Counted from the first letter of the stretch, positions 40,623-57,295 are shown. The stretch is DNA of 64,000 nt from an uncultured archaeon (GCA_964559215.1 CAZLFZ010000003.1:18779-82778); one strand, 5' to 3'. A program made the numbers and translations. Notes: generated by a model from the sequence alone, not told the origin.

Positions 40623-41297
40623 CTAGATGACCTTGGTTTCTGTAAGTCTTATGTATTTGTTATCTATTAAAAGCTCGTGGGGCAGCTTGGCATCGAAATT
40701 TGTGTATCTCATCTTATGCACTACCAAGGCCCGCATGGGCTTCTCCTCGAGCTCCAGGAATATCAACTGCATCACGCCATCACATTCAAATGATTCATGA
40801 CCGCTTGAATCCAACTTTTCATCAGAGTCTGTTTCGCACAAAAGCAGCGAGGATTTTGCGTTTTTCAGGCTGTTGATAAGCTCTATGAAGTAGGCCCTGT
40901 AAGATTTCTTGCTCTCAGAGAACATCAGCAGCTTGTTGACATTATCTATCACTATTCTGTCTATTTTTGGGTAGCTCGAGATAATGTCTATAAACCTCTT
41001 CATGGACAAATTGCTCTGAGCCATTGGTATGTATTCTATGGCCAGGTTTTTCCCCATGTATTTTTTCACACTGTTCAGGGATTTTACGGACTCGCATGCC
41101 TTGATTAACTCCTCTTTGTTTTCATTTAGCGTTATGTAACAACATTTCTCACCTTTTTTGGAACCCTCTAGCATAAATTTTAGACCCAGCAGCGTTTTTC
41201 CAGTTCCCGGACCTCCGGAAAGCAAAATGACCGACTTTTCTGGGAACCCTCCGGCTAGCATGCTGTCCAGTTTTTTCAGGCCTGTTGTGACTCTCAT
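40623..41297 (-). CDS. single-domain KaiC-like ATPase (start at internal ATG with GAGGAGGA SD; track ORF extends to a TTG at 41327)
   Basis: GLKKLDSMLAGGFP, Walker A GGPGTGKTLL, ..IVIDNVNK.. Confidence 0.85.
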   Translation of the reverse strand: MRVTTGLKKLDSMLAGGFPEKSVILLSGGPGTGKTLLGLKFMLEGSKKGEKCCYITLNENKEELIKACESVKSLNSVKKYMGKNLAIEYIPMAQSNLSMKRFIDIISSYPKIDRIVIDNVNKLLMFSESKKSYRAYFIELINSLKNAKSSLLLCETDSDEKLDSSGHESFECDGVMQLIFLELEEKPMRALVVHKMRYTNFDAKLPHELLIDNKYIRLTETKVI

Positions 41298-41298
41298 A

Positions 41299-41628
41299 TC
41301 AATCCTCCTCAAATTTTGGTATACCAAGCCTGGAGCTTTTTATTTTTATCAGCAGGAATGCGTCACCGTCCAAGGCAAAGATGTTTGATGGCACTTTCTT
41401 TTCCATCATTTCAATGCCGAATTTTCCCAGTATCTTTTTTGGCAACATTATCCTGTTGCTGTTGCCTAATTTCCCTGTTGTGAGGCTGTAAGTGAGCGAG
41501 TCTTTCCCGCAAGGCAGGAGAAGAATGTCAGTCACGTGATCTTTCAGAATTTTATATTCAGCCATGTTGATGGAAAGCTTTATTTCAATCCCACCGTCAT
41601 GCATATTAATGCCTTTTATCTCGGCCAT
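41299..41628 (-). CDS. small protein with C-terminal AbrB/SpoVT/MazE-like swapped-hairpin motif, immediately upstream of the KaiC gene
   Basis: ..GNSNRIMLPKKILGKFGIEMMEKKVPSNIFALDGDAFLLIKI resembles the AbrB-N consensus (GRivIPkeiRkkLgi..gd.v.i...d..i.L.k). Its stop lies 1 nt before the KaiC ATG. Confidence 0.55.
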   Translation of the reverse strand: MAEIKGINMHDGGIEIKLSINMAEYKILKDHVTDILLLPCGKDSLTYSLTTGKLGNSNRIMLPKKILGKFGIEMMEKKVPSNIFALDGDAFLLIKIKSSRLGIPKFEED

Positions 41629-41727: not shown

Positions 41728-42585
41728 ATGCTAAAAACAATAAAGGGGGGGGAGGTGCAGGAATTAAAACCCGAAAACGAAAGGGCGCCAGCACAGAAAA
41801 AAAGGACCGCTAATAAAAAAAAGGTACCAGAAGCGAAACTTCAGCAAAAAACAGATCAGCACGAGTTCATAAAAACAGGCATACCGGGCCTCGACGCCCT
41901 CTTTGAACACGGGATACCAAAAAAATCTAGCGTGCTTATTGCTGGCGGTGCCGGTTCCGGCAAGACCCTGCTCTGCTTGCAGATTATGGTCAATGCTGCC
42001 AAGGCCGGCAAGAAATGCATGTACATGTCCTTTGAGGAGTCCGCCGCCAGGCTGAAAAACCACATGGAAGAATTTGGCTGGATTTTAGGGAAATATGAAA
42101 AGAACGTTGTTATAGAGAGGTTCAACCTGTTCGACATTACCAGAGTCATAGATGCGCTGCTTGCGAAGCAATCAGGGGATTTGCTTATAGATGTTAAGCC
42201 TGTCCTATTCCCGGAAAATTTCAAGCCGGATATTATAGTTATTGATTCTCTGACAGCCATAGCTTCCGCTTTTAGCAAAAGAGAAGAAACCTACCGGATA
42301 TATATAGAACAGCTTTTCAATTATTTCGAAGAGTTGGGGGTTAGTACATTCCTTATATCAGAGACTGAGCAGGAGCCTAGAATATTCAGTCCAACGGGGG
42401 TAGAAGAGTTCCTCGCTGATGGGGTCATTATTCTTTACAGCATAAGAAAAGCAAATGTCAGGGAAAATGGACTTGAAGTACTCAAGATGCGGGGCGCGAA
42501 GCACAAGAAAAAAATCGTGGCCATGCAGATACTTGATAAGATAGGCATAGAGGTTTATCCGGAGCAGGAAGTTTTCGGCGTGTGA
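41728..42585 (+). CDS. single-domain KaiC-like ATPase with Lys-rich N-terminal extension
   Basis: GIPGLDALFEHGIP, Walker A GGAGSGKTLL, ..IVIDSLTA.., C-terminal ..LEVLKMRGAKHKK. Confidence 0.9.
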   Translation: MLKTIKGGEVQELKPENERAPAQKKRTANKKKVPEAKLQQKTDQHEFIKTGIPGLDALFEHGIPKKSSVLIAGGAGSGKTLLCLQIMVNAAKAGKKCMYMSFEESAARLKNHMEEFGWILGKYEKNVVIERFNLFDITRVIDALLAKQSGDLLIDVKPVLFPENFKPDIIVIDSLTAIASAFSKREETYRIYIEQLFNYFEELGVSTFLISETEQEPRIFSPTGVEEFLADGVIILYSIRKANVRENGLEVLKMRGAKHKKKIVAMQILDKIGIEVYPEQEVFGV

Positions 42586-42998: not shown

Positions 42999-45900
42999 TT
43001 ACTTTGGGGATCGGTTTGGCTTTATGCGTTTTAGTTGAGGTTTTTTAACTTTAGCCTTGCGTGGTTCACGCCTTTCCTTTTTCACTTTTTCAGGGACTGG
43101 TTTTTCAGCCCGGGGCAACCTGTATTCGCGGTGTTCTTTCTTGAGTATCTTGACTTTTTCAGCTTCCAGCCTCTCCATCGTCCTGCCAAGTTCTTTTTTG
43201 TATTTTTTCATCCGGGTTTCATAGTCTTTTTTGCCCAAGCTTTTCTTGTTGAAATAACCTTCCTGCAAGGTCTTCATCGAGTTTTTTATGTTGTCGACCT
43301 CATTCTCCAAGCTTTTCATCATGCGGGCTTTTTTCACTTTTTTCAGCTTTACGAAAGCAGGAACAGACGCTAAAACAAGCAAAACAACGCAGGCAGATAT
43401 AATCAGCCTGTGTGCATAAATCATTTTACCAAATACATCAACGAGATTCTCTCTTGCAGCCATGGAAAGTGCGGCCTCCCTTTCAATAGAGTCCAACCTG
43501 TCCATCGCCTGGGTCAGCAATGTCTCTGCCTTTTCATAATTTTCTTTAGCAAATTCGTCTACTCCATTGCGGAACAAATTCCTAGACTCAGAGACATCGT
43601 GACCCTCGGAAGAAAGCTCATGCATTCTCAGCTCCACATCGTCTATCATTTCGTCAACTACGATTGCTTTCTGTTTTATCACAAAAACGTACCTTGCTGT
43701 GGTCAAAGCAAGGTCGTACTTCCCGCGTAAAAGCAGCACCTTGGCTTCTCCCAGCGTGTGATTGGCATATTCTGTTCCAAAGCCAAGAGCTTTCATTTCG
43801 TCTATAACTGTTTCGGCCTGAGTCATGGCAGCCGTAGCATCCTCTTCCGTCACGTTTTCCAGGGCTTCCAAAACAGAGGGGAAGACCGCCACACAAGCCA
43901 ACAAAACCAAAAACCAAATCACACCCTTAGATCGTTTTGGTTTTTTAAGCTTGCTTAAATCTCTTTCTATTTCTGCAAGCTCCCCCTGCAGCTCTTTGAT
44001 GGTTTCTTTGTACTCGCTCTTGCTTATTTTTCCAAATTCGAAATAGTCACGTTGCAGGTCTTTCATCCTCTTTCCCACCTCATTCTTCTCCCTGTTAAGG
44101 CTTTCTCTCCTGTCTCTGCCTTTCATCATTGCGATTTTTGTGGCGAGTTTTAGCTCGAGTGAGCCTAGTTTGGCAAGCCTTTTTTCGTAATTCCGTTTCC
44201 TCATGTCATAATCAAGCATTGATATTTTTTTCCTGTTGAAATAATCATCCTGCAAGTCATGTATGAGCTTTTTCAGACTCCTTTTATCCCCCCTTATACT
44301 TTCCAGTTTCATTTCCATTGACCTTATTTTCAACCTTCCTCTGAGAAAAATGGATATTATCGCTGCCGATAAGAGCAAAGTAACAATTGCGTACCAGTAT
44401 TTGTAGAGGAACTTGATCAAGGGCAAGATATATTTGGTCTCAAGCTGGTATGCATTTATCGCTGCCTGGATCCTTTCCTCAGCCCTTTCATAGTCGCCCC
44501 TGTCGAAGGCGGATTTCGCCAAGTCCTGCATCTTTTTTGCTCCCTCAACTCTTACACCGTATCTGGCGGCATCTGCTATCATGTTTGCAGACTGTTTAAT
44601 GAGATCAAATACAATAAAGGCCTTTTCCTTGAGTTCGATTATTTCATTTGCTATTTCCTTGGCTTTGTCGAAATTCAAGCCAGAATAAGCCTTTCTAGCA
44701 TCTTGCAGCATTGAGGCCAGGACAGAAACGCTGAAGTTCATGCCTTTCATGTCTTCCAATGCGATTTCGGCACTCTTTATAGAGCTGAAGCTCACGTTTT
44801 CGACTACACCATGAACCGAAAATACAATCTTGCCAGAACTCAGTAAAGAGCTGTTACCGGCAGCGTAATAGCCAATCGCTGAAAGGGAGATGTCCACTAT
44901 ATAGTCCCTTCCTTCGATATAGGTTGGTGCACTGATTTCCAGGTAAAAGGTTTTGGTTTGATTAGGAGCAATGTACTTAATTGTGCTCGGTATTTTTTTA
45001 ATCAGGGTTTCAGGATAACCGCTTATTTCAAGATTGACTTGTGTGAGGTTTGTGTTTTCTACAGTATTCGTTACTTCTATGGTGAAGTTGTAGAAACCGC
45101 CTTTTAGGAGATCAATCCTATCAGGCATCGCGACATCCATTCTCGGTTCTTTTATGATAACCTCACCAATGCCTACGTATTCAGTCACCCCCCTCCCAAC
45201 GCTTGGTCCTTCGCAGTCAATGTCTGTGAAATAGTTGCAACCCGCTCCACAGACACCATCCGAATTCGAGCAACTAACCTGTACGATATCACAGTCAGAG
45301 CTGCTCAGGTTCCCTTTACCACTGGCATTCACGCATACACTTGATATCCCGCTTAAAGCTGATGAACTTACTGCCACAACCAGATCGCTTGTGTTTGTTG
45401 ACTTGGAAGTGATATTACCAATGTACAGGTTCACGTTTCCGCTGGTGTTTGTCCAACCAACTGGAAGCGTCCAGTTAAACCAGACATCTTCAGCAGTTTC
45501 ATTGCCAATGTTTTTAACAGTGGCACTCAAGTTTACACCTGTTGTGCTCTGCGTCACTGAAACAGGACACGTAACAATGTTTAGATGAGGATAAGGCCCG
45601 CCGCTATAGGAATTCATGGTCACGGTGGTATTCAATGCACTTGGTGTCGCGGTTTTTTCAGGGGCAGAGGGCTCAGCGGACATCGTTATTGTCATATTCT
45701 TTACGCTGTCAGAACTTGCATATTCGGCAGTGACGTTGATGCCTATTACGCTTTTCCCATCTATTGCGAATTGTTCCGTTGTGTTATAGTAAACATCTAG
45801 CAAAGGCCGCCAGTCGTCCGTTAGGGTGATTATGAGAGTGTCGTCTCCGGTATTGTTTACGGTTATAATCCCTACGTTGCTTATACTATTCACAAGCCCG

Positions 45901-47267
45901 TATGCATCAATAGAGGAAGGGTTTCTATTCCATGAGTAATCCCAGGTGACATTCACGCTGTCGTTTTGACAGGTGTTGGCGCGTCCTAGGGTGTCATTTG
46001 ACCATATCCTGTAATAATATAGCCTTTCAGAGGATATGGTGGTAAAAGACGCATTCCATAAATTGGTGCCTATTTTGCTCATAGTCAAGTTGATCCAGTC
46101 TACATCGTATTTGTATTGAAATATCGCACCGCTTACATTGCTGGGGTCTGTTATTTCGGCGGTGACATTTATCGTTACACTGGGGTCAATATCGGCAGCG
46201 GAACTTGGGGACATGTTGATGTAATTTACAACAGGACCGGAGAAGACATCTACACTGAAGGTATAGTTGTCGATGTACCATGATTTCTGGGACTCGTTGT
46301 CATAAACCAAACAATTCCAGGTATAAGTCCCGTCAGGGATGCCGGTCAAAGTCCAGTTTGCAGATTTATTTCTGTAATCACCAAAGGCTTTCATGTAAGA
46401 AGCGTTTATCTCGTCTGGGCTTTTTGGTATGTTGGATATTCTGAGTTCATCAAAAGTGGAATACGCTTGATAGTACTTGTTTGAATCACTTCCAAGATAC
46501 ATGTCATTTCCAAATGGAGCGTAAGAATAGAATCCACCAGAGTATATGACAGAATCATTGGAGCCGTCCAGGAAAAGATCCAGTATTCTCCCGCTGCCGA
46601 CCAAGTTATACACATCCCATATGCCTGCCACATGGTGCCATTCTCCAGGATTCCAGGTGCTTATATCCCTGTACGCGGTTGTTTGAGAAGCGTAGTCATC
46701 GTTATAGTAAAAATACAGTGTTCCATAATCAGCGTATAATTGAATTTCGTCCGTGCCTGTTTTACCCGTTGAGAAAAGCCAAGCCGTATCAGAATAAGGA
46801 TCGAAACCGACCTTTAACCAGAATTCGACAGTGCCCTGAGCGGAGTTTATGTTATTTGAAGTTTGATATTTCAAGGAATCCGATTCATCATTTATCATGA
46901 CCCCTTGCATGAACTTGCCGGTCACGAAGCCGGTGGAATCGTTCACACCCACCTCCCCGTCCTCACATGTATAGTCGCCATTAAAATGGCAAAGAAGCAT
47001 GGTGTCTGAATCGGGATCAAACTCCATTGTCCGCTTTGTGCCATGGAAATCAAAGGTGCCGTTTATATCATGGTAAAAAGAGAAACTGAGCACATTTTCG
47101 TCATCCGTTCCGTTGCAAATAAAGGTTAGGTTATTTGTAGAGGTAGAAACATTCCCATCAACCGGTGAAACCAGGGTAACATTGGGATAATTGGAAGCTG
47201 CAACGCTAGGTAAAAATGGGAATAGAAGTAGTATTAGAACTAAGATGGAGAGATATCCGTTAGCCAT
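42999..47267 (-). CDS. giant cell-surface glycoprotein (1422 aa): signal peptide, LamG/ConA-like domain, Ig/CARDB-like domains, then 3 TM helices alternating with helical ecto-domains and cytoplasmic (L/M)xxLQxDYF coiled-coil repeats
   Basis: Signal MANGYLSILVLILLLFPFLPSVAAS; LamG-like ..GTVEFWLKVGFDP..AWLFSTG..LDLFLDGSND..; many NxS/T; C-terminal motifs LQDDYFNRKKIS, LQRDYFEFGKIS, LQEGYFNKKSLG and a basic tail. Confidence 0.85.
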   Translation of the reverse strand: MANGYLSILVLILLLFPFLPSVAASNYPNVTLVSPVDGNVSTSTNNLTFICNGTDDENVLSFSFYHDINGTFDFHGTKRTMEFDPDSDTMLLCHFNGDYTCEDGEVGVNDSTGFVTGKFMQGVMINDESDSLKYQTSNNINSAQGTVEFWLKVGFDPYSDTAWLFSTGKTGTDEIQLYADYGTLYFYYNDDYASQTTAYRDISTWNPGEWHHVAGIWDVYNLVGSGRILDLFLDGSNDSVIYSGGFYSYAPFGNDMYLGSDSNKYYQAYSTFDELRISNIPKSPDEINASYMKAFGDYRNKSANWTLTGIPDGTYTWNCLVYDNESQKSWYIDNYTFSVDVFSGPVVNYINMSPSSAADIDPSVTINVTAEITDPSNVSGAIFQYKYDVDWINLTMSKIGTNLWNASFTTISSERLYYYRIWSNDTLGRANTCQNDSVNVTWDYSWNRNPSSIDAYGLVNSISNVGIITVNNTGDDTLIITLTDDWRPLLDVYYNTTEQFAIDGKSVIGINVTAEYASSDSVKNMTITMSAEPSAPEKTATPSALNTTVTMNSYSGGPYPHLNIVTCPVSVTQSTTGVNLSATVKNIGNETAEDVWFNWTLPVGWTNTSGNVNLYIGNITSKSTNTSDLVVAVSSSALSGISSVCVNASGKGNLSSSDCDIVQVSCSNSDGVCGAGCNYFTDIDCEGPSVGRGVTEYVGIGEVIIKEPRMDVAMPDRIDLLKGGFYNFTIEVTNTVENTNLTQVNLEISGYPETLIKKIPSTIKYIAPNQTKTFYLEISAPTYIEGRDYIVDISLSAIGYYAAGNSSLLSSGKIVFSVHGVVENVSFSSIKSAEIALEDMKGMNFSVSVLASMLQDARKAYSGLNFDKAKEIANEIIELKEKAFIVFDLIKQSANMIADAARYGVRVEGAKKMQDLAKSAFDRGDYERAEERIQAAINAYQLETKYILPLIKFLYKYWYAIVTLLLSAAIISIFLRGRLKIRSMEMKLESIRGDKRSLKKLIHDLQDDYFNRKKISMLDYDMRKRNYEKRLAKLGSLELKLATKIAMMKGRDRRESLNREKNEVGKRMKDLQRDYFEFGKISKSEYKETIKELQGELAEIERDLSKLKKPKRSKGVIWFLVLLACVAVFPSVLEALENVTEEDATAAMTQAETVIDEMKALGFGTEYANHTLGEAKVLLLRGKYDLALTTARYVFVIKQKAIVVDEMIDDVELRMHELSSEGHDVSESRNLFRNGVDEFAKENYEKAETLLTQAMDRLDSIEREAALSMAARENLVDVFGKMIYAHRLIISACVVLLVLASVPAFVKLKKVKKARMMKSLENEVDNIKNSMKTLQEGYFNKKSLGKKDYETRMKKYKKELGRTMERLEAEKVKILKKEHREYRLPRAEKPVPEKVKKERREPRKAKVKKPQLKRIKPNRSPK

Positions 47268-47429
47268 ATTTATTATGTTTTCTTTTACCTAATATAACTA
47301 GGTTTAAACTTTACCTCTCTGGACCTCCCTGATATAGTTTATAATCTGACACGAATACCCAATCTAAGTTTAAATAATGCTGCATTTATCTTCCAAGAAA
47401 AGTAAAAATTCATTTACCTGATACCTGAT

Positions 47430-48881
47430 TCACTCCACCAAGAATTCATACAAATTTATCATGCTGCGCTTTATATGAACCCTCGGGTCGCGCTTAAAGC
47501 TGGAAACCAGCTTAAGTTTCAGCCCTTCGCATTTTTCATCCCCTGCTACGGAGAGAACTGTTTTATTCACCGAGAGAAATTCTTTTATCACTTCACAACC
47601 AGTTGTTGTGCTGGACACTTTCGTCAGGTTTACCTGGTAATAGGTAAAGTACTTATAGGCAAAACCGCTTAAAACGATAATGCTGTCTGGGCCGTAATTA
47701 GAATTAACGTAAGAAATGAGCTGAACTGGGGGAGCTGGTTTGGTGCTAATCTCAAATGCCAGAAAGAGGGAGTGGGTCAAAACAAGCACGATGAGAAAGC
47801 CAAACAACGCATATCTTTGAGTTGCCCTTTTCAAACTCCAGATGGCTTTTGTGAAAATCAAGGAAAGCAGGGGAACGAGGATTATAAGATACCTGGGATT
47901 GAAAGGAGGAAGGAGCATGAAAATCAGGAGCAAGTAAATAAAAATCCCTGAGGCAAAAAAGAGCGCCCTCTTGCCCCTTAGATTAATGTTTTTAAGACAA
48001 AAAATTGCCAGGACGGCCATTAAAAACAAAAGGATGATGCTGAATATCCCAAGACCGGCCAAGTTGATTCCATAGCCGCCCAGCAAAAAATAATAAAAGA
48101 AACCGAACAATTTCAAGGCTAGGATGTTCGAACTGTAATCAGTGCCAAGGAGTGAAATATCAGGTTTGCCGACCCTGAAACCAAACTGGTTTGATGCAGA
48201 AGAGACATACTCAGAAATGCCTGTTATCAATAACAAGGGCAGCAACCACGCCAAAATAGCGAGAAAAAAGAGGAGAAAACCCTTAAACCTAATTCGGGCG
48301 TCTTTTTTGTGCGATAAAGACACGTAAACAAGGACAGGCAACAGTATAAAAAATGTGTGAATTCTCACCCCCGTTGAGATTCCTGCCAGGAAGGCCCCAA
48401 GGTAAAAATGGCCAGGTTTCTCATACTTGACGTACTTGTAAATTAAAAGCATCGAAGCGAGTGTAAAAAAGAGCCCGGTGATATCAGACATCGCCTTTAC
48501 GCTGTTAAGCCAAAAAAGAGGCGTAAAAGCCATCAAAACGGATGAGGCCAAGGCTATTTCCATGTTGAGCATATCCTTGACCAGTAAATAGAAGACAAAA
48601 ACGGACAATGTGCCGAACAAGGCGCTCATAAATGTGAGGCTTAGCACCTCGTTTTTGAAGAATGTGTTAAAGAACATGCCCAATGCCATGTATACAGGAA
48701 ATCCGGGAGGGTGAGGCTGATACTTTGTCACATTGAACTCTTTAAGTCCCAAGGCGAAATGGACAGCATCTTCTTCATCCAAGGATACGCTAAGAGTTGA
48801 AATATAAATCAAAAAAATCAGTATGGAAAAAAGAACCGCAATCCTATCCAAGTCATTTTTTTTCAACATGCTTCTCCTCAT
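47430..48881 (-). CDS. GT-C fold polyprenyl-phosphate-sugar-dependent glycosyltransferase (PMT/ArnT GT39/GT83-like; N-terminal loop motif resembles the DUF2723/TMEM260 type)
   Basis: About 12 TM helices; first extracytoplasmic loop DEEDAVHFALGL..YQPHPPGFPVY; large C-terminal soluble domain. Confidence 0.8.
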   Translation of the reverse strand: MRRSMLKKNDLDRIAVLFSILIFLIYISTLSVSLDEEDAVHFALGLKEFNVTKYQPHPPGFPVYMALGMFFNTFFKNEVLSLTFMSALFGTLSVFVFYLLVKDMLNMEIALASSVLMAFTPLFWLNSVKAMSDITGLFFTLASMLLIYKYVKYEKPGHFYLGAFLAGISTGVRIHTFFILLPVLVYVSLSHKKDARIRFKGFLLFFLAILAWLLPLLLITGISEYVSSASNQFGFRVGKPDISLLGTDYSSNILALKLFGFFYYFLLGGYGINLAGLGIFSIILLFLMAVLAIFCLKNINLRGKRALFFASGIFIYLLLIFMLLPPFNPRYLIILVPLLSLIFTKAIWSLKRATQRYALFGFLIVLVLTHSLFLAFEISTKPAPPVQLISYVNSNYGPDSIIVLSGFAYKYFTYYQVNLTKVSSTTTGCEVIKEFLSVNKTVLSVAGDEKCEGLKLKLVSSFKRDPRVHIKRSMINLYEFLVE

Positions 48882-49125
48882 GTATAAGAATCAGGTTTCT
48901 TGTGTATATCAGTATGCCGAGACTCTGGCCTATGATAAACACGGGGTCCATTATGTGTATGGAGTAAATCAACAGCCCCAAGCCGCCAAGTGTACTCAAA
49001 TACCAGAAGTGTGTGGGAATTACGCTTTTCTTTCTCCGTTCGGATGCGATCCACTGAACAAAAAACCTGAGGAAAAAACAACCTTGCGCCGCAAGCCCGA
49101 AGATCAGCCAGAAGCTCATTTGCAT
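48853..49125 (-). CDS. LAB_N (lipid-A-disaccharide-synthase N-terminal domain-like, PF07578-type) small membrane protein
   Basis: FLRFFVQWIASERRKKSVIPTHFWYLSTLGGLGLLIYSIHIMDPVFIIGQSLGILIYTRNLIL matches the LAB_N consensus (FLVQW.ASE..KkSV.P..FW..S..G...Ll.Yai.r.DpVFi.GQ..G..iY.RNL.L). Confidence 0.75.
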   Translation of the reverse strand: MQMSFWLIFGLAAQGCFFLRFFVQWIASERRKKSVIPTHFWYLSTLGGLGLLIYSIHIMDPVFIIGQSLGILIYTRNLILIHEEKHVEKK

Positions 49126-49126
49126 T

Positions 49127-49810
49127 TTAACAGCACCTTAACAGTTCCCTGTGTTTAAATTTAACCATAAACAGTGTTTTAAGATTTCCGAACAAACGGT
49201 TACCTATGCCATATTTGGAGGTTCCATGAATGCGAGGATAGTGATTTACCTTGTACTCATTTATTCTGAAACCCTGCAACTTTATCATTGCTGGGATGAA
49301 TCTGTGAAAGTTTTCAAAGTACTGGATTTTTGAGACACACACTCTTCTAAAGACCTTTACGGGGCAGGTGTTGTCGTGCAAATTTACACCCAGCAGTTTA
49401 TTGTTAAAAGAGTTTCCAATCTTTGACGAGATATTTTTTATAAGACCATCCCTCCTCTTATACCTCCACCCAAAGACGCAGTCGTATCGAGTGCCGAGTA
49501 TCTTGACCATTCTGGGTATGTCCCTGGGGTCGTTCTGCCCGTCTGCGTCAATCGTGGCTATAATAGTACCCTTCGCCTTTTTCAACCCTTCGTACAGAGC
49601 AAAGGATTTCCCCCGATTTTTATTCAGTCTTATTATCTTGAGTCTCTTGTCTCGTATCTTTCTGATCTCAACACAGGTTTTGTCGGTAGAGCCGTCATCA
49701 ACGGCTATAATCTCGTAGTCTTTTCCTAGCATAGCTTTTTTAACCCTTTCGTACACCTGAATTATGTTCTCCTCTTCATTATAAGCCGTGGTTATTACAG
49801 ATACTTTCAT
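49127..49810 (-). CDS. GT2 family glycosyltransferase, dolichyl/polyprenyl-phosphate hexose synthase (DPM1/ArnC-like)
   Basis: VITTAYNEEENI, EIIAVDDGSTD, IDADGQNDP, ..GFRI.E.PV.H..R..G.SKY. Confidence 0.9.
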   Translation of the reverse strand: MKVSVITTAYNEEENIIQVYERVKKAMLGKDYEIIAVDDGSTDKTCVEIRKIRDKRLKIIRLNKNRGKSFALYEGLKKAKGTIIATIDADGQNDPRDIPRMVKILGTRYDCVFGWRYKRRDGLIKNISSKIGNSFNNKLLGVNLHDNTCPVKVFRRVCVSKIQYFENFHRFIPAMIKLQGFRINEYKVNHYPRIHGTSKYGIGNRLFGNLKTLFMVKFKHRELLRCC

Positions 49811-49962
49811 AATTTTTCGGTATCCTCCAGCTATGCATCAAATTCTTTCCCAGTTCTTTCACTTCTTTCTTGATTATCTTTTCAAACCAGATAATTAAAT
49901 TAATAACAATAATAACGAAATATAAATACCGAAATTCAGAAATTTCAAAAAATAAGCAAGAG

Positions 49963-49982
49963 TTTAAACAAATGGCGAATTT
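49963..49982. promoter_or_regulatory. palindrome GCGAATTT-ttat-AAATTCGC overlapping the TATA-like box about 28-35 bp upstream of the sulfatase-like gene ATG (50010)
   Basis: 8-bp perfect arms around tttataaa; divergent intergenic region 49811-50009. Confidence 0.3.
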
Positions 49983-50009
49983 TTATAAATTCGCAAAAAA
50001 ATATATGAC

Positions 50010-51503
50010 ATGAATTCAAGATTCTTAATTCCGGTGTTTGTTTTAATATTCATAGTTTTAATACCCACCAGCCTCTTTGGAGGTCTTGAGACAGCGAGGG
50101 AGATAGCAAAATTCTTCGCACCCCAAAATCATCCGGGTGTAAGCTACGCATGTCCAGACTGCAATCTACTCATCTTCACAATTGACACCCTCAGAGCTGA
50201 CCACATTTCATCTTATGATTATTTCCAAAAAACAAGCCCTGTTATCGATTCTGTTGCAGAGAAGGGAATAACCTTTACTAACGCATTTTCCCAAATTCCT
50301 CACACCCCCCCATCCCATTGGTCCATATTCACATCTCTTTATTCGTACAAGCATGAAAAATTCTTGCCTGGAGAAAACGGAACAGGACTCACCACCCTGT
50401 CCGATATTCTCAAAGATAACGGCTATTTGACAAGCGGTTTTATAAGCAGCTGGATACTTATCGGATTCAACGATGAATTTGATTATTTTAACGGGTACGG
50501 ATACAAGGACAAAAGAAGAAACAAGAGATTCCTTTCAAAGAAAGCGGTTGAAACTACCGAAGCTGTTCTGCCCTGGCTGGAAAACCACTCCGGTGAAAGA
50601 TTTTTCTTGTGGGTTCATTATTTCGACCCGCACAGCCCTTACGACCCGCCCGAGGAATATGACATCTACAATTACACCGTCACCAGTGTTTATTCTGATG
50701 CAAAATACGAGCAGATCGGCCTTTCAAGGACAGGACCAATAAGAGGAGACATAGCAAAATATGACGGTGAAGTGAGATATTCAGATGAAAACATAGGTAT
50801 TGTTCTCAAAAAACTGGAAGAGCTTGGGCTTATAAACAACACGCTTGTAATAATTACCGCTGACCATGGAGAATGCTTTGGTGAACACAATTTTTCCAAC
50901 TTCGGATACGAGGAGGAAAAGCCGTGCATTTTCCATGGAAAAACATTGTACGATGAAGAGATACACGTACCCTTTGTAATATTCAATCCGCACTCCCCGT
51001 CGAAGAACGTGAAAATAAACGATTTGGTGGAAACCGTAGACATTATGCCAACGGTTCTGGATATTCTGGGCATAACCAATGAGCCTGAAATTGACGGCGA
51101 AACTCTTGTTCCCCTTATCCGCGGGGTTAGAAAGACGAAGAATTACAGCATATCACAGACAAGGCCGATAAAGAACAGAGCCTTTTCGATAGGTATCAGA
51201 ACAAATGAGTGGAAGTTCGTGATCATGGCACCTGGTGAACTAGAACTGGAGAAAGACATTGCAGAACAGGAGGGTAAAAGTGTAAACTTCACAGATTATG
51301 AGGGGGAGGCGGGGGCTCCAGTAAAAAAATTATTATTCAATGTGAATGAAGGGGAAAATAAGAATTATGTTGAAGTCGAAAGAGACGTGGCCGGGGCTCT
51401 TGAAAGTCAACTGAGAGATGCGATTTCCGTTAGGGGATTTCCCAAAACAGTTTCAATTGATGAAAAAACGGAGGATTTGTTGAAATCGCTTGGTTACATT
51501 TAA
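50010..51503 (+). CDS. sulfatase-family (alkaline-phosphatase superfamily) protein with non-canonical active-site motif
   Basis: FTIDTLRADH (metal-binding Asp motif), ITADHGECFGEH. The position of the C-x-P-x-R formylglycine motif reads HTPPS instead. Confidence 0.82.
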   Translation: MNSRFLIPVFVLIFIVLIPTSLFGGLETAREIAKFFAPQNHPGVSYACPDCNLLIFTIDTLRADHISSYDYFQKTSPVIDSVAEKGITFTNAFSQIPHTPPSHWSIFTSLYSYKHEKFLPGENGTGLTTLSDILKDNGYLTSGFISSWILIGFNDEFDYFNGYGYKDKRRNKRFLSKKAVETTEAVLPWLENHSGERFFLWVHYFDPHSPYDPPEEYDIYNYTVTSVYSDAKYEQIGLSRTGPIRGDIAKYDGEVRYSDENIGIVLKKLEELGLINNTLVIITADHGECFGEHNFSNFGYEEEKPCIFHGKTLYDEEIHVPFVIFNPHSPSKNVKINDLVETVDIMPTVLDILGITNEPEIDGETLVPLIRGVRKTKNYSISQTRPIKNRAFSIGIRTNEWKFVIMAPGELELEKDIAEQEGKSVNFTDYEGEAGAPVKKLLFNVNEGENKNYVEVERDVAGALESQLRDAISVRGFPKTVSIDEKTEDLLKSLGYI

Positions 51504-51660: not shown

Positions 51661-52545
51661 TCACATATACCCAAGCGACCGCAGTCGCCTCATCGTGAAC
51701 TCCCGCTCTTTGTCCTGCGCCCTGCCGGCTCTTTCAGGGGTTTTGGTAATTTCCAGTTCCTGGATTATCTCATCGATACTAGACGATGCCGATTTTATGG
51801 GTGATGTGCAGCACCGGCATCCGAGTGACCTGTACCGCAGGCCATTCCTCGCGAAGTAAAGTGGATTTACAGGAAGATTCTCCCGCTTCGTGTATCTCCA
51901 TACATCCAATTCAGTCCAGTGCAGTATTGGATGCACCCTAACATGTGAGCATTCTTCACCAAAGTCGGTCTGGTACAAGTTCCACAGCTCTACAGACTGC
52001 AGAGACTCAAACGGGGCATCACCCATTTCTCCCCTGGTTTTTGGCCTTACAATGTGCCATTTGAACTCTTTGTCTCTTGGCGAGAAATATCTTTCTATGT
52101 TTCTCATATAATGCTCGTCCCTTCTTATGGACAATATCAAAGCGTCGAAACCATGCTTTCTGAGAACCTGCTTTAGCGCTTCTGTTTTCAAAGCCGTGCA
52201 ACAGAAAAAATGGCCGTCCCTTTCTGGAGAAACGCCTCTTTTCATTGCTTCCCCGTTTTTCCCTATTATAAGATTAAGGTTCCATTCATTCGCTAGCGTG
52301 TCCCTGAACTCGTAAATCTCCGGGAACTTGCGTCCTGTATCCAAGTGTATGACGGGAAAGGGGATCTCACCAAAAAACGTACTCCTAATCAGATGGAGCA
52401 TGCACGTAGAGTCCTTGCCGGTTGACCAGAGCACCGCGGGATTCTTGAACCTTGATCTGACCTCTTTCAGTATGTACTCTGTCTTGGATATCAAATCTTT
52501 CATAGGTCCATTAGACTTTGTCCAAGCACTCATATTAACACCCAC
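51661..52545 (-). CDS. PAPS-reductase/ATP-sulfurylase-small-subunit family (PF01507-like) protein
   Basis: ..AVLWSTGKDSTCMLHLI.. (SGGKDS-type PP-loop), ..YRSLGCRCCT... The probable true start is at the internal Met (52533 or 52503). Confidence 0.8.
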   Translation of the reverse strand: MGVNMSAWTKSNGPMKDLISKTEYILKEVRSRFKNPAVLWSTGKDSTCMLHLIRSTFFGEIPFPVIHLDTGRKFPEIYEFRDTLANEWNLNLIIGKNGEAMKRGVSPERDGHFFCCTALKTEALKQVLRKHGFDALILSIRRDEHYMRNIERYFSPRDKEFKWHIVRPKTRGEMGDAPFESLQSVELWNLYQTDFGEECSHVRVHPILHWTELDVWRYTKRENLPVNPLYFARNGLRYRSLGCRCCTSPIKSASSSIDEIIQELEITKTPERAGRAQDKEREFTMRRLRSLGYM

Positions 52546-52549
52546 ATTT

Positions 52550-53326
52550 TTATAAAGTCAAGTAAAGTTTCAAAATCATCAATGCCCCAAGTGACGTTAT
52601 GAAAGCGCCCAGTATAGGTTTGCTGCGCTTGGATTCCATCCGCTTTGTCAATAATGTGCCAAAAGGCGTAGCGGCAATTGCGCCTATACATAACACAAAC
52701 AGCAACCCCCATTCTGCTATTCCATTCAAAAACACATAGGAGAGAAAGCCTGCGAGACATATAGGCGATTCAGCCACAGTCGTACATCCTATGGAATCCC
52801 TTTGGCGGTTTCCTGATATAATCTGACCTCCAGTGACTACCGGGCCAAAACCCCCGCCCGACAGACCTTTGTTGAATGCTGCCAGAATTCCAACACCTAT
52901 CATTTTTTTCCATGAAAAACTGAATTTTTTATTTATCAACATTATTATTCCCACCAACGTTACCAAGAGACCTATGTACGCCATCAGGACCGCCTTTGGG
53001 ATACTTACTGCGACAAATACAGAAATGATAGTCGCTGTTACACCAAACAACGTAAATATGCATACTATATAAGTATCCCTGGAATGCTTGCTGAAGTATA
53101 TGTTTTTGCGCTTGTGATGCAAAATTCCTGCCGCAAGGCCGCTCAGTCCCTGAGACAGAAGTAAAGAAGGTATTACAAGCAGGGGGTCAAAACCGGCAAT
53201 TATCAGTATCGGTGACAGCATGGTCCCATATCCCATCCCGAGCGAACAGTCAATGAGTTCTCCTATGAATGCCAAGATTGCAATCGCTATTTGCTCCATT
53301 AACTCCACCATCTTCACGTGTGCCAA
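52550..53326 (-). CDS. TauE/SafE family (sulfite/organosulfonate exporter-like) membrane protein
   Basis: Gly-rich TM repeats ..FNKGLSGGGFGPVVTGGQI.. and ..LSQGLSGLAAGIL..; 7-8 TM helices. Confidence 0.85.
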   Translation of the reverse strand: MAHVKMVELMEQIAIAILAFIGELIDCSLGMGYGTMLSPILIIAGFDPLLVIPSLLLSQGLSGLAAGILHHKRKNIYFSKHSRDTYIVCIFTLFGVTATIISVFVAVSIPKAVLMAYIGLLVTLVGIIMLINKKFSFSWKKMIGVGILAAFNKGLSGGGFGPVVTGGQIISGNRQRDSIGCTTVAESPICLAGFLSYVFLNGIAEWGLLFVLCIGAIAATPFGTLLTKRMESKRSKPILGAFITSLGALMILKLYLTL

Positions 53327-53451
53327 TTTGCACCCGATTTTTGCCTCATAACATCATATTGCTTGCCCTTTGACCAGAGCACCGCGGGATTCTTGAATCT
53401 CGATTTGACCTCTCTCAGTATGTACTCGGTTTTGGCTTCCAAATCCTTCAT
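53314..53451 (-). pseudogene. truncated duplicate of the 5' end of the PAPS-reductase-like gene (45 codons, then frameshifted/terminated)
   Basis: Encodes MKDLEAKTEYILREVKSRFKNPAVLWSKGK.., versus the intact gene's MKDLISKTEYILKEVRSRFKNPAVLWSTGKD. DNA at 53340-53451 is about 85% identical to 52420-52503. Its ATG overlaps the TGA of the phosphodiesterase gene. Confidence 0.6.
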
Positions 53452-55586
53452 TTGACCACCAGACTTTTCCCGTCCATTTCCTCTGGTGTATCCAGACCCA
53501 ACAGAGAAAGCACGGTCGGCGCTATATCGATGAGGCTTGGATTTTCTTTTTCGATTAGAAAGTTGGTAAATATCACCCCCGGAACATAATTCCTGTCAAT
53601 CAGGTGATCACCGGTCCACACCTTCTCATTATCAGAAAAAATTTCAGGGCTTACCCCTCCAATCGCATTCTGCCAGGATATCCTGTAGCCCGGCTTAAAA
53701 CCAATGACAATATCCGGAGCATCTTTTGCATACTCCCCCCTGTAAATCTCCTCCTTCCTGTAAAGGTTCGCAATTGCCCTCATGCCCGTTTTTGGGTCGG
53801 TCAACCCCTTTAACCTTTCAATGATCTCGTTAATAAGCCGGTCCTTGTCCTGGTCTTCGACTATTCCTTTCCCTTCCCTATCTTTCAGGTTGATGTATAA
53901 GCTGGCGAATCCCAGCGAGTATGCCTTGGTTTTGCTCCAATCTACGTATTTAAACAGGTTGCCGGAGTCGTTTTCTTCGGGCTTTTTAGTTAATGTCATG
54001 TATCCATTCTTAACCAACCACGTGTTGATGCTAACAGCCCTTTCAAAGGAGCTGAATCCGTGGTCTGAGAAAACTAACAGATAAGTGTTATTGTCTATCC
54101 TGTCAAGCACTTTGCCTAGGAATGAATCTTTCTCTTTGTAATAGTCTTCTATAGCCTTTGATATTTTCAATTCACTTTTGTTCCCGGTCAGGTCCTTATT
54201 TTCCCAGCAAATGTGCTGCAGCCTGTCGCCAGCATCAAAGGCAAACGCATAAACCCCTCCGGTAAACCTGTCAAATTCGTACCAAAACATCTTTGTCCTC
54301 TCATCTTCGATATGTTTAACCTGATTCAGGAACACATCTTTACCGATTCTGCCTTCTTCCAAGGCTTTTGTGTCTTCAGGGATACCCATAGTATAGAACA
54401 GCCCTATTTCATTTGCAAGTTCTTTGCCGTATTCCCTTGGATAGGTGATGTCAACTACCGGATTCACCGGGTCTATCTGTACGGATGTTACATACATGTT
54501 AAACTCTGGCTCGATACCCAGCAGGTAGACTTTGAATATCCCGTAAACATCTGTCAGGAAATCGATTTTGAATTTAACCCTTATCCAGTCACTCCAGTTC
54601 TTGGCTCCAACTTTATACGCTGCCTCATCAATCTCTATTACTGCATAATCATCGTGCAATTTAATTTTAATCGGGACAGCGGATTCAACTATATCTTTCC
54701 CACTTTTAACGAGAGGTCCGAATATCTCGGTTTCAATCTCCCTATTATGTTCGCTTACCTTAATCACCTTCCCTACATCATCCCGATTTTTTTCATAATC
54801 CCCACTAGTGTAAAAAGAGTAGCTGTTCAAGAACCCTTTGATATCCACAACACCCAATCCGGAGAGCATTCTCCCCGTAACTTTTTCGGGTGGGAAGGTG
54901 GCGGGCCACCTTATCACAGTGGTTGGGATGCCCCCTTCACTTGTTATTCGCCAGAAGGGTATCCCCTTCATTGCGGATTTGTATGTCGTCCCAAGCAACC
55001 CTTTGCTTTGTTCGGCCAGGCTTAATTTCGGCAAATAAGTAGCAGTGTCCCTGCCAACATAATCAAATATGCCATACTTGCCTGGATTGGAACCTGTGGC
55101 AGCCGCGCTCCATGCAACGGGGGATTCAGGAGGGATGGTAGTTTCTAACCTAGAGTAATCTCCCCCTTCTTTCAGTTTTTTGAAATTCGGCAACTTGCCG
55201 TCTGCTACCATCTTTTCAACAACTTTTGGGTCCATTGCGTCAATTCCTATGACGAGCACCTTCTTTCCCGAAAAGGCCATTTCCTCCCCACCACCAAAAG
55301 TTCCTATAAAACTCTTTGTAATCCAGATATTATAGGCAGCAATTGTTATAATTATAATTATTATGATCAGAGTAAAGATAAACTTTCCCTTCTCCCCCCC
55401 TGACAATTTCCTGAGAAACCTGACAATTTTCGTTAACGCCTTTTTTAACGGTTTGAAAAAATAGGTCATTAAGAAAGCACCGACCAACGCCAAAATGCCG
55501 GCAACAAGACCCCACAAAGAACTAAACACAAGCCCCGCTGTTCCGGGGTCTATGTAAGCAAATGGGCAATGCGCTTTCGGAATCAT
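53448..55586 (-). CDS. type I phosphodiesterase/nucleotide pyrophosphatase (alkaline-phosphatase family, PF01663-like) with N-terminal membrane anchor
   Basis: ..KVLVIGIDAMDP.. ..PPESPVAWSAAATGSNPGKYG..; N-terminus MIPKAHCPFAYIDPGTAGLVF plus 2 TM helices. Start placed at the internal ATG (the track ORF reaches a TTG at 55667). Confidence 0.82.
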   Translation of the reverse strand: MIPKAHCPFAYIDPGTAGLVFSSLWGLVAGILALVGAFLMTYFFKPLKKALTKIVRFLRKLSGGEKGKFIFTLIIIIIIITIAAYNIWITKSFIGTFGGGEEMAFSGKKVLVIGIDAMDPKVVEKMVADGKLPNFKKLKEGGDYSRLETTIPPESPVAWSAAATGSNPGKYGIFDYVGRDTATYLPKLSLAEQSKGLLGTTYKSAMKGIPFWRITSEGGIPTTVIRWPATFPPEKVTGRMLSGLGVVDIKGFLNSYSFYTSGDYEKNRDDVGKVIKVSEHNREIETEIFGPLVKSGKDIVESAVPIKIKLHDDYAVIEIDEAAYKVGAKNWSDWIRVKFKIDFLTDVYGIFKVYLLGIEPEFNMYVTSVQIDPVNPVVDITYPREYGKELANEIGLFYTMGIPEDTKALEEGRIGKDVFLNQVKHIEDERTKMFWYEFDRFTGGVYAFAFDAGDRLQHICWENKDLTGNKSELKISKAIEDYYKEKDSFLGKVLDRIDNNTYLLVFSDHGFSSFERAVSINTWLVKNGYMTLTKKPEENDSGNLFKYVDWSKTKAYSLGFASLYINLKDREGKGIVEDQDKDRLINEIIERLKGLTDPKTGMRAIANLYRKEEIYRGEYAKDAPDIVIGFKPGYRISWQNAIGGVSPEIFSDNEKVWTGDHLIDRNYVPGVIFTNFLIEKENPSLIDIAPTVLSLLGLDTPEEMDGKSLVVK

Positions 55587-55678
55587 TAAGAAGTTTAAGT
55601 TTTTGTTTAATATTAATATAAAGGCAAAAGGCAATTTAGAGCTGGATATGGATAGGAAATAACACAAAATTCAAAATT

Positions 55679-56212: not shown

Positions 56213-57295
56213 TTGTGTACATTAATGTATAAACTGTCAGACAGGTGCGCGCGTTTGACGAACAATCCAAATTCTACAGACCTCAGGAAGGCTATAATAG
56301 ATGCATTGCGCCAGCATCCCGAGGGCCTGACACTCAGGGACATAGCAGAAATCGTGGGCAGGCACAGGCACACGATAACGAAATACGTGTACGAGTTGAT
56401 TGGGGCGCGGGTTATCTACCAGAGGGACGTTGGTGCCGCCAAGCTATGCTACCTGAAGGAGAATTACAACGGCCCAGAGAAAGGGAAGGGCGTGAAAATT
56501 TTTAGCAACATGTCTAAGGGACAGGTCCAGCTGATGGCGCTTTTCATGCTGCTTTTGCTGGTGCCTGCAACGGTTATCGTTGCCCAAAATGTGACAAATT
56601 CTTCAAGTGGCCTTGAAGGGATGGCAACGGCTATGGACATAGAACTTAATGAAACGCTCGATGACGTTTTGAATGAGACGATCCTGGATGAAAATGTATC
56701 AGGGGATATACCTGAAGGGGAAGCCAATCACCAAGTCCCGGGCAACACGACCGAAGAAGAAACATCCGAAGAGGAAACAGCCCCCCAAGAGCCCGATAAC
56801 GTGACCGAAGAAAATATAACAGAACCAGGACTCAACATCACACAGCCTTCCGTCAATGTCACAATCAATGTCACAATAAACGAAACCCAAGAAAACGCAA
56901 CCACGAATATCACACAGCCCGAGGAAAACGTAACGATGCCGGAAGAAAACGTTACCATAGTCAATGAAACCAACGTAACCTACCCTGAAGAAAACATAAC
57001 AATACCCGGGCCACTCGAACCGGAACTCTTTGTGAACATCACATCGCCGGATAATATCACAAGAGGGGAATCGGCAAGGCTTGAGGCGGTCATTGAAAAC
57101 ACAGGCGGCGAAGCCGAGGATGTAATCCTAGAATGGATACTGCCCGATTTCTTCGTTGTTGTCGCCGGGTCTGAGCGTGAAGAAGTAGGGACTTTGGCTG
57201 CAAATTCGTCTTTTGCATCTGAAATAACGGTTTCCAGCACGATCAATGTGAGTTTGGGCATAAACGAAATCAAGGTGAGGGTGAGCTATGAATAA
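56213..57295 (+). CDS. membrane-tethered winged-HTH protein: cytoplasmic wHTH - single TM - sequon-dense acidic stalk - C-terminal CARDB/Ig-like ectodomain
   Basis: N-terminal ..AIIDALRQHPEGLTLRDIAEIVGRHRHTITKYVYELIGARVIYQR..; TM LMALFMLLLLVPATVIVA; about 30 NxS/T in 150 aa; ..ITRGESARLEAVIENTGGEAEDVILEWILPDFF... A likely start is an internal Met (about 56227). Confidence 0.7.
   Translation: MCTLMYKLSDRCARLTNNPNSTDLRKAIIDALRQHPEGLTLRDIAEIVGRHRHTITKYVYELIGARVIYQRDVGAAKLCYLKENYNGPEKGKGVKIFSNMSKGQVQLMALFMLLLLVPATVIVAQNVTNSSSGLEGMATAMDIELNETLDDVLNETILDENVSGDIPEGEANHQVPGNTTEEETSEEETAPQEPDNVTEENITEPGLNITQPSVNVTINVTINETQENATTNITQPEENVTMPEENVTIVNETNVTYPEENITIPGPLEPELFVNITSPDNITRGESARLEAVIENTGGEAEDVILEWILPDFFVVVAGSEREEVGTLAANSSFASEITVSSTINVSLGINEIKVRVSYE

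Follow-up and report, generated by a model that had tools for sequence, protein, structure and literature searches.

A candidate GT2, LAB_N and GT-C glycosylation cassette adjoining a LamG-domain surface protein gene in an uncultured archaeon

Introduction

Three-component glycosylation systems that act outside the cytoplasm are established in bacteria, and in the known examples the place of the flippase is held by GtrA, by SMR proteins (ArnE/F, Rv3789) or by MATE proteins (PMC11127046). For example, the Gtr-type systems (GtrB/GtrA/GtrC) of Shigella and Salmonella and the pentofuranose systems of Citrobacter consist of a GT2 synthase, a small membrane protein and a GT-C glycosyltransferase, encoded in a compact accessory cassette that is patchy among close relatives, and their acceptors are O-antigen or cell-wall glycans (PMC11127046). 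Similarly, the O-glycosylation of streptococcal surface proteins by a GT2 and a GT-C is established, with GtrB/PgtC2 and the Pgf system (PgfS/PgfM1/PgfM2) placing single O-linked sugars on surface or membrane proteins (PMC12041528, PMC5856776). In archaea, O-glycosylation has been seen on proteins, and in 2021 no enzyme had been assigned to a pathway described as “still elusive” (PMC8241124); in the later literature we found no such assignment. Here we describe a 64,000-nucleotide (nt) stretch of DNA from an uncultured archaeon (GCA_964559215.1, CAZLFZ010000003.1:18779-82778; hereafter the window), in which genes for a GT2 glycosyltransferase, a LAB_N small membrane protein and a GT-C glycosyltransferase form a candidate glycosylation cassette directly upstream of the gene for a LamG-domain surface protein.

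In Haloferax volcanii, the final mannose of the N-glycan is added outside the cell from dolichyl-phosphate mannose by AglD/AglR/AglS, to our knowledge the one characterised archaeal set of dolichyl-phosphate-sugar synthase, flippase-associated protein and outside-acting transferase. Also relevant is TMEM260, which O-mannosylates IPT domains (PMC10214176; bioRxiv 10.64898/2026.03.17.711096), as a preliminary description of the locus had correctly stated. The structure of TMEM260 comprises 11 transmembrane helices, a first loop bearing D52 and H67, and a Rossmann-like luminal domain with the catalytic base D441; its TPR domain suffices for binding of the acceptor peptide, mutation of the asparagine ladder leaves about 10% activity, and the acceptor sequon is P-x5-P-x3-G-P-x2-[GA]-G-G-x2-[TS] (bioRxiv 10.64898/2026.03.17.711096).

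The reading that we consider best, with a probability of roughly 0.45, is that the archaeal genes form an accessory three-component glycosylation cassette acting outside the membrane, with the adjacent LamG protein as its most likely acceptor and direct O-linkage as the leading form of attachment. This reading is supported by the homology of the GT2, the abutting and overlapping cassette genes, the linkage to LamG in all eight lineages of one GT-C clade, the patchy presence of the cassette, a Ser/Thr at column 225 (Ser225 here) that tracks it, and the precedents outlined above. Three features of the locus are new: it is archaeal (DPANN), LAB_N holds the flippase position, and a target is nominated by genomic context for a minimal TMEM260-like GT-C.

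Organisation of the locus

Pfam matches were judged by curated gathering cut-offs, and the cassette and surface-protein genes all lie on the minus strand:

49127..49810, minus strand: GT2 glycosyltransferase, 227 amino acids (aa); predicted dolichyl/polyprenyl-phosphate sugar synthase without the usual C-terminal membrane helices; PF00535
48853..49125, minus strand: small membrane protein of the LAB_N family (90 aa) with three helices; PF07578; may translocate the lipid-linked sugar and/or serve the GT2 as a membrane partner
47430..48881 (alternative start 48869), minus strand: GT-C glycosyltransferase, 483 aa; TMEM260-like/PMT_2 N-terminal module and small alpha/beta C-terminal domain
42999..47267, minus strand: surface protein, 1422 aa; signal peptide, ectodomain (about 25-950) and C-terminal membrane/coiled-coil module; prime candidate acceptor

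The four open reading frames (ORFs) and their coordinates are those of the preliminary description, and the GT2, LAB_N, GT-C and LamG families assigned there all pass the curated cut-offs. A single base separates the GT2 and LAB_N genes, while the LAB_N and GT-C genes overlap by 29 nt, or by 17 nt if the GT-C starts at its second ATG. The closest relative of the GT-C with a named organism is from a Candidatus Aenigmatarchaeota genome (73% identity), and the window is therefore taken to come from a DPANN archaeon.

Comparison with described systems

As in the Gtr-type systems, the synthase and the GT-C are encoded together, but the third gene encodes LAB_N rather than a GtrA, SMR or MATE flippase; the locus further differs in being archaeal, presumably with a dolichol carrier, and in having a GT2 without transmembrane helices. 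The streptococcal systems share the pairing of a GT2 lipid-sugar synthase with a GT-C, yet their targets are Ser/Thr-rich disordered regions of a kind lacking in the LamG protein, and the parts of the sources available note no LAB_N partner. The ArnC/ArnE-F/ArnT pathway follows the same logic of synthase, small-protein flippase and GT-C, with ArnC nearest to the GT2 of the window and ArnT near its GT-C. However, lipid A does not occur in archaea, neither formyltransferase nor deformylase genes are present here, and ArnC has two transmembrane helices where the window GT2 has none. The AglD/AglR/AglS set differs in its N-linked glycan acceptor, in having its genes in the agl cluster and not next to a target protein, and in having no LAB_N, and NCBIfam gave no match to that system here.

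Human TMEM260 shares with the GT-C the PF11028 (DUF2723) match, the GT-C fold, probably 11 transmembrane helices, a first loop that carries a conserved Asp and His, and an alpha/beta domain that follows the final helix. It differs in its size (resolved to residue 706, versus 483 aa here), in the presence of a TPR domain and in the length of its C-terminal domain (about 150 versus about 100 residues). PMT/GT39 enzymes combine a PMT N-terminal module with a luminal MIR domain, whereas here the PMT match is partial and MIR is missing.

The predicted lipid-sugar synthase

The GT2 matches Glycos_transf_2 (PF00535, E 8.6e-34) and has a GT-A catalytic domain with a DXD motif (D88-A-D90). Its best matches in the PDB were ArnC (E 4e-29), the Pyrococcus dolichyl-phosphate mannose synthase DPMS (E 2e-21) and GtrB (E 6e-21), all of which are polyprenyl-phosphate sugar synthases. 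Residues 2-203 align to residues 9-215 of ArnC, and so through the interface helices, and the alignment to GtrB is similar; the best stretch to the Pyrococcus enzyme spans residues 1-125 only. These matches make a strong case from homology that the GT2 would make a dolichyl-phosphate monosaccharide, in line with the synthase activity first proposed for it. The sugar is not readable from the sequence, and the top NCBIfam matches, ArnC (121 bits, cut-off 529) and PgfS (106 bits, cut-off 500), are both far below equivalog level, as is every other equivalog score.

No hydrophobic segment was found along the 227 aa of the GT2, and the C-terminal transmembrane helices that anchor such enzymes are accordingly lacking. 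Human DPM1 is likewise without C-terminal transmembrane helices and depends on partner subunits.

LAB_N in the flippase slot

The 90-aa protein matches PF07578 (E 1.3e-29; 102.5 bits versus a cut-off of 26.7) and, weakly, MtN3_slv (E 0.023); Lab-N has been placed in the MtN3-like (SWEET) clan of Pfam (PMC4499210). Its AlphaFold2 model is a three-helix bundle with a mean confidence (pLDDT) of 95.6, and an alignment of 35 homologues contains 24 invariant positions, many of them polar. Stand-alone LAB_N proteins show an unusual degree of conservation, at 60-68% identity between this archaeon and bacteria. Our literature search found no functional study of LAB_N/PF07578.

In all three bacterial contexts examined (Rhizobiales, Omnitrophica and Alphaproteobacteria; loci L089-L095), the same overlapping order was found, with a short GT2 lacking transmembrane helices followed by LAB_N and then a GT-C. 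The LAB_N proteins of these triads, at 61-65% identity to that of the window, are much closer to it than are the partner enzymes to theirs: the GT2 proteins are 32-40% identical and the GT-C is a different, ArnT-like PMT_2 protein with no similarity to the archaeal enzyme detectable by BLASTP (E 0.03-0.25). The bacterial triads are widespread. No surface-protein gene adjoins them, and the neighbours of the alphaproteobacterial one are a PhoQ-like two-component system and a cytochrome b-like gene; we found no paper describing such a triad. Because the order recurs in bacteria with an unrelated GT-C, LAB_N appears to be tied to the donor-making step and not to the acceptor-specific enzyme. In the archaeal and bacterial triads alike it sits in the flippase slot, which is positional evidence only. 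Gene position and fold class together give moderate to weak support for a role of LAB_N in assisting the translocation of the lipid-linked sugar and/or in tethering the GT2.

LAB_N is also present upstream of the GT-C in a relative outside the LamG-linked clade (P0028), suggesting that it is ancestral and was later lost from those linked lineages that are without it. Since it is missing from half of these lineages, LAB_N would be helpful but not indispensable, or else replaceable in trans.

The GT-C enzyme

The GT-C scores above the gathering cut-offs of three overlapping models: PMT_2 (50.5 bits), TMEM260-like (PF11028; 44.5 bits, cut-off 24.2) and PMT (PF02366; 30.7 bits, cut-off 22.7). The likeness to PMT and DUF2723 enzymes noted earlier is thereby borne out. 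Across 30 family members, PF11028 matches 29, PMT_2 28 and an ALG9-like Pfam model seven. The PF11028 match is confined to the generic N-terminal module (residues 56-193) and the PF02366 match to residues 73-187. Pfam gave no MIR match, and the predicted model has no room between helices for such a domain.

The predicted model is confident and has the multi-pass GT-C fold. The first outer loop reads L34-D35-E-E-D38...Q55-P-H57-P-P-G60 (LDEEDAVHF...QPHPPGFP), and the motif DEEDAVHF...HPPGFP to which the preliminary description drew attention is real: D38, P56, H57, P59 and G60 are invariant over 30 homologues, nearly all of which have Asp or Glu at position 35. The C-terminal domain (about 385-483) is a small alpha/beta domain with two conserved Cys and strands at 401-404, 420-423, 442-444, 454-463 and 474-482. 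The count of 12 transmembrane helices given earlier is approximate; because the N-terminus is cytoplasmic and the C-terminal domain lies outside, an odd number is likelier, probably 11 as in TMEM260.

An AglB-type oligosaccharyltransferase was considered and ruled out, as the WWDxG and DK/MI motifs occur in none of the 30 members and the protein is too short. A profile search of the PDB gave only a weak match to the transmembrane region of Archaeoglobus fulgidus AglB (E 5e-4), a single-sequence search of PDB chains gave chance matches only, and ArnT was among the top structural neighbours of the predicted model. NCBIfam returned no AglS-type match, and the score for Agl23 (23 bits) fell short of its cut-off of 126. 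The fold and motifs point to a GT-C that would transfer sugar at the outer face. The homology supports a probable GT-C using a polyprenyl-phosphate monosaccharide; it does not extend to O-mannosylation of Ig-like domains, because the TPR domain, an IPT domain in the neighbour and the sequon are all missing.

Gene order seen from the GT-C

Genomic contexts of the GT-C were gathered by look-ups and by a scan of 185,579 species genomes, and were read against a neighbour-joining tree of the enzyme. The order GT2-(LAB_N)-GT-C-LamG, on one strand and with gaps of 1-163 nt between GT-C and LamG, was found in eight lineages (the window, L001, L002, L004, L005, L006, L008 and L011). The GT-Cs of the seven relatives are 40-73% identical to that of the window, and the outer flanks vary. 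All eight lineages fall in one GT-C clade, with LamG directly downstream of the GT-C in every case.

Distant homologues of the GT-C (at most 33% identity) occur in Methanothrix, Bathyarchaeia and many bacteria, and at none of the 65 such loci where a downstream gene was called is that gene both large and on the same strand. In three Verrucomicrobia loci (L038, L078, L025) the distant relative is followed by a short-chain dehydrogenase gene overlapping it by 4 nt, and in Methanothrix (L013) by a UbiA-family gene. By analogy, these neighbours recall the decaprenyl-phosphoribose/arabinose donor pathway and hint at other donors and acceptors for the distant relatives.

Gene order seen from LamG

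Among the strong homologues recovered by a metagenome scan with the LamG alignment, 17 had 2.5 kb or more of sequence upstream of the gene, and three of these have the cassette. Cassette-less and cassette-linked members are interspersed in the LamG tree. For example, the cassette-less L098 is sister to the window and L001 and has the same divergent sulfatase gene directly upstream, while L119 retains the HTH_24-LamG neighbourhood of L001 with the three cassette genes missing. The cassette is therefore an accessory insert directly upstream of the LamG gene that has been repeatedly gained or lost. Linkage holds from the enzyme side within one GT-C clade and does not hold from the target side; because the enzyme stays by its target while the target is often without the enzyme, the pattern fits a dedicated but dispensable, non-obligatory modifier.

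KaiC-like ATPases are the neighbours that accompany the LamG family most constantly. Of ten upstream genes searched with Pfam, eight encode a KaiC-like ATPase, one an HTH_24 regulator and one a sulfatase; KaiC-like or DUF7504 genes adjoin the LamG homologues of L001, L005 and L006 and of eight metagenome loci (L097, L100, L101, L102, L107, L108, L111 and L122), KaiC-like or CBS-KaiC genes being the commonest neighbours in the metagenome loci. Together with the cytoplasmic coiled-coil segments of the protein, this neighbourhood suggests a partnership of the LamG family with KaiC-like signalling or assembly. Seven KaiC-like/DUF7504 ATPase genes were also counted in the window itself (17313-18317, 18528-19028, 19025-19780, 26084-26854, 27541-28089, 40623-41327 and 41728-42585).

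The LamG surface protein

The 1422-aa protein belongs to a conserved family, and three of its parts were delimited:

46404..46883, minus strand: Laminin_G_3 (concanavalin-like) domain, residues 129-288; PF13385, E 5.4e-14; holds the V-G-S225-G loop
45327..45536, minus strand: NPCBM_assoc (CARDB-like beta-sandwich), residues 578-647; PF10633, E 1.2e-7; invariant motif KNIGNE (K585-E590)
42999..44399, minus strand: C-terminal module (about 957-1422), in which charged, helical (coiled-coil-like) stretches separate three hydrophobic helices

Of the Ig/CARDB/LamG-rich architecture originally ascribed to the protein, the LamG and CARDB-like parts stand, while the Ig-like part comes down to a weak Big_7 match (E 0.23). 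Hydropathy peaks in the C-terminal module lie at 957-975, 1115-1133 and 1288-1306, and a LQxxYF...SKxxY motif occurs there three times (LQDDYFNRKKISMLDY, LQRDYFEFGKISKSEY and LQEGYFNKKSLGKKDY), which we take to resemble SHOCT-type motifs. The LamG proteins of L002 and L004 break off after their second repeat, and the ORF that follows (about 260 aa; L002 14811-15593, L004 14810-15598) resembles the C-terminal part that they lack.

The ectodomain (residues 1-950) contains 39 N-X-S/T sequons versus 13.9 ± 3.2 expected from shuffled sequences (z about 8), and the remainder of the protein only three. The same pattern was found in every LamG orthologue, with a rich ectodomain and nearly none in the C-terminal membrane/coiled-coil part.

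Three more giant ORFs are present in the window, at 3-13736 (minus strand; at least 4578 aa), 19813-25857 (minus strand; 2014 aa) and 57721-63999 (plus strand; at least 2093 aa), and beside them the description of the 1422-aa protein as giant is true only in a relative sense. The largest contains three DUF2341 domains, H_lectin and NPCBM_assoc, and the 2014-aa ORF contains F5/8 type C. Their sequon z-scores are 24 (at least 4578 aa), 14 (2014 aa) and 8 (at least 2093 aa). Across the giant-protein ectodomains of the window, including that of LamG, N-X-S/T is enriched 2.5-3 fold (z 8-24), so that N-glycosylation is probably general in this organism.

Proposed mechanism

At the cytoplasmic face, the GT2, itself without transmembrane helices, would charge dolichyl (polyprenyl) phosphate with one sugar taken from a nucleotide sugar, as its homology indicates. 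LAB_N, probably as a SemiSWEET-like dimer, would then aid the passage of the lipid-linked sugar to the outer face and/or tether the GT2, a role suggested solely by its position and fold class. At the outer face, the first outer loop of the GT-C, with D38 and H57, would bind the lipid-linked sugar, and a single sugar would pass from it to a cell-surface acceptor. The conserved gene order nominates the LamG/CARDB protein encoded directly downstream as the most likely acceptor, and direct O-linkage to Ser/Thr would be the leading option, with Ser225 as a weak candidate site.

Several observations weigh against this mechanism. The chemistry of the cassette and its protein acceptor have candidate status, drawn from homology, motifs and gene order. 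The fold searches with the GT-C do not discriminate between protein, glycan and lipid acceptors, and the enzyme is without the TPR domain: its chain of 483 residues closes with a domain of about 100, and Pfam gave no TPR match. In the LamG protein, Pfam found no IPT/TIG domain, a regular-expression search of the 1422 aa found neither the TMEM260 sequon P-x5-P-x3-G-P-x2-[GA]-G-G-x2-[TS] nor the looser GG-x2-[TS], and no Ser/Thr-rich, mucin-like linker was found in blocks of 50 residues (maximum fraction 0.32). Ser or Thr occupies column 225, in the V-G-S-G loop of the LamG domain, in seven of eight cassette-linked orthologues and in none of 12 cassette-less ones, four close relatives among them, a correlation that is uncorrected for phylogeny, stems from roughly two independent events and is broken once, by L006; it is therefore a lead, not evidence. 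The Foldseek search with the LAB_N model placed the SemiSWEET 4x5n and SWEETs on top without significance (E about 1, template modelling score about 0.5), and the LAB_N gene is absent from four of the eight LamG-linked lineages.

The linkage itself also has limits. Two relatives just outside the clade, P0028 (GT-C 41% identical) and P0020 (49%), have no LamG neighbour, and the claim that the cassette always lies beside LamG was accordingly dropped in favour of one restricted to a single GT-C clade. The converse claim, that LamG always has a cassette, was refuted by the metagenome scan, as only three of the 17 strong homologues have one and 14 lack it. The expectation that the triad would be syntenic with surface-protein genes in relatives was thus confirmed within the clade and failed beyond it. 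Part of this synteny may moreover be plain inheritance, because wider gene order (HTH_24, KaiC-like, response regulator, HMGL and UbiA genes) is also kept in these genomes. In P0020, the neighbours of the GT-C gene are a pilin-like gene on one side and a CDP-alcohol phosphatidyltransferase gene on the other.

The cassette of P0028 is convergent with a gene (L143 1657-3321, minus strand) for a 554-aa Cys/Asp/Asn-rich protein that has zero sequons and ends in ...GAPGFEFGLLSLLIAVVISSAFFFVRA, resembling a PGF-CTERM archaeosortase signal.

Alternative acceptors and readings

The cassette and its donor chemistry could be as proposed with a glycan as the acceptor, the GT-C adding a terminal or branching sugar to N-glycans or to a lipid-linked oligosaccharide in the manner of Haloferax AglD/AglR/AglS or of ALG3/9/12. 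This is unlikely, but it is a serious rival because all giant proteins in the window are enriched in sequons, so that N-glycans are probably abundant, and the ALG9-like matches in the GT-C family would be in keeping with it. A general N-glycan enzyme, however, would have no obvious reason to stay beside one protein gene down to 40% identity, neither aglB nor other agl genes were found nearby in the window, Pfam favours TMEM260-like/PMT_2 over the ALG families more consistently, and the NCBIfam results for AglS and Agl23 point the same way. Improbable, in turn, is the narrower form of the favoured reading advanced in the preliminary description, in which a TMEM260-type enzyme would recognise and O-mannosylate Ig/IPT-like domains. 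The near-universal PF11028 match, the invariant first-loop Asp and His, spaced much like D52 and H67 of TMEM260, and the small alpha/beta domain placed where TMEM260 has its Rossmann-like domain are all consistent with it. Yet the acceptor-binding TPR domain is missing from the enzyme, and the IPT/TIG domain and TMEM260 sequon from its neighbour, the PF11028 match covers the generic module alone, and nothing points to mannose. As a whole, the interpretation given there finds partial support.

Rather unlikely, too, is modification of a non-protein component of the envelope, for instance a surface polymer or the head group of a membrane lipid or glycolipid, much as ArnT acts on lipid A, with the adjacency to LamG reduced to inherited gene order. 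The PhoQ-like two-component neighbours of bacterial triads, reminiscent of lipid A-modifying loci, would fit such a role, as would the UbiA and short-chain dehydrogenase genes beside distant GT-C relatives, which suggest other donors and glycan or lipid acceptors, the differing contexts of GT-Cs outside the clade, one of them beside the CDP-alcohol phosphatidyltransferase gene, and the conservation of the wider neighbourhood. The GT-C of the bacterial triads is nevertheless not detectably similar to the archaeal one, the tight same-strand linkage to LamG persists in all eight lineages while the flanks change, and the clean absence of the cassette between the same flanking genes in L098 and L119 fits an accessory modifier of the neighbouring product. 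Chance adjacency is disfavoured and very improbable: four very large genes take up about 47% of the 64-kb window, which makes a giant neighbour unsurprising, but the same family recurs in the same position and on the same strand in eight independent lineages, and no comparable gene was seen at the 65 distant-homologue loci.

Implications

If the adjacent LamG protein is indeed the acceptor, the locus would offer a concrete pair of enzyme and substrate, with Ser225 as a candidate site, that could be tested by heterologous expression, and a prokaryotic, TPR-less reference for how the disease-linked human TMEM260 gained its acceptor specificity. If O-glycosylation is direct, the GT-C would be the first enzyme to be placed in the O-glycosylation pathway of archaea. 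Whatever the acceptor, LAB_N in the flippase slot is a lead on a Pfam family for which we found no described function, and touches a poorly understood step, the crossing of membranes by polyprenyl-phosphate sugars. It is doubtful that both halves of the fullest version hold together, namely that the GT-C is a genuine O-glycosyltransferase of archaeal proteins, related to TMEM260 but minimal and prokaryotic, with its substrate encoded next door, and that LAB_N represents a new SemiSWEET-like family of polyprenyl-phosphate-sugar translocators common to the bacterial triads. Under the rival readings, the locus would be an ordinary member of the three-component systems that decorates glycans or lipids.

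Flanking regions and other genes of the window

The regions and genes immediately around the cassette and the LamG gene are as follows:

49811..50009, minus strand: AT-rich intergenic region 5' of the GT2 gene, common to the divergent sulfatase gene; presumed cassette promoter region with several TATA-like stretches
47268..47429, minus strand: 162-nt gap between the GT-C and LamG genes (1-127 nt in relatives); contains AT-rich TATA-like stretches and, following the GT-C stop, a T-run
50010..51503, plus strand: sulfatase-family gene, divergent, flanking the cassette; PF00884, E 1.6e-42
41728..42585, plus strand: KaiC-like ATPase gene adjoining the 3' end of the LamG gene; PF06745, E 2.2e-51

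Judging from sequence features, the region at 49811..50009 is the presumed promoter region of the cassette, and the LamG gene may have a promoter of its own within the 162-nt gap. Scans of the window for tRNA genes and Rfam families returned nothing relevant.

On the other side of the presumed promoter region, the cassette is adjoined by the sulfatase gene (50010-51503, plus strand) and by genes for a PAPS reductase, a TauE sulfite exporter and a phosphodiesterase-family protein (51661-52545, 52550-53326 and 53448-55667, all minus strand). A sulfatase gene directly adjoins the L005 locus and the cassette-less L098 as well, and a link of the locus to sulfated glycans is possible.

Further along, a 360-aa ORF (56213-57295, plus strand) combines an N-terminal helix-turn-helix-like match with 25 N-X-S/T sequons (z 10.9), an odd mixture of DNA-binding and secreted-protein signals, and shows faint similarity to the LamG protein (E 3e-4). 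Proteins of 378-424 aa occupy the same position in relatives, beside HTH_24. In addition, a 600-aa protein encoded at 14201-16003 (plus strand) contains a PIN domain, a secretion-type/STAND-like ATPase and KH domains.

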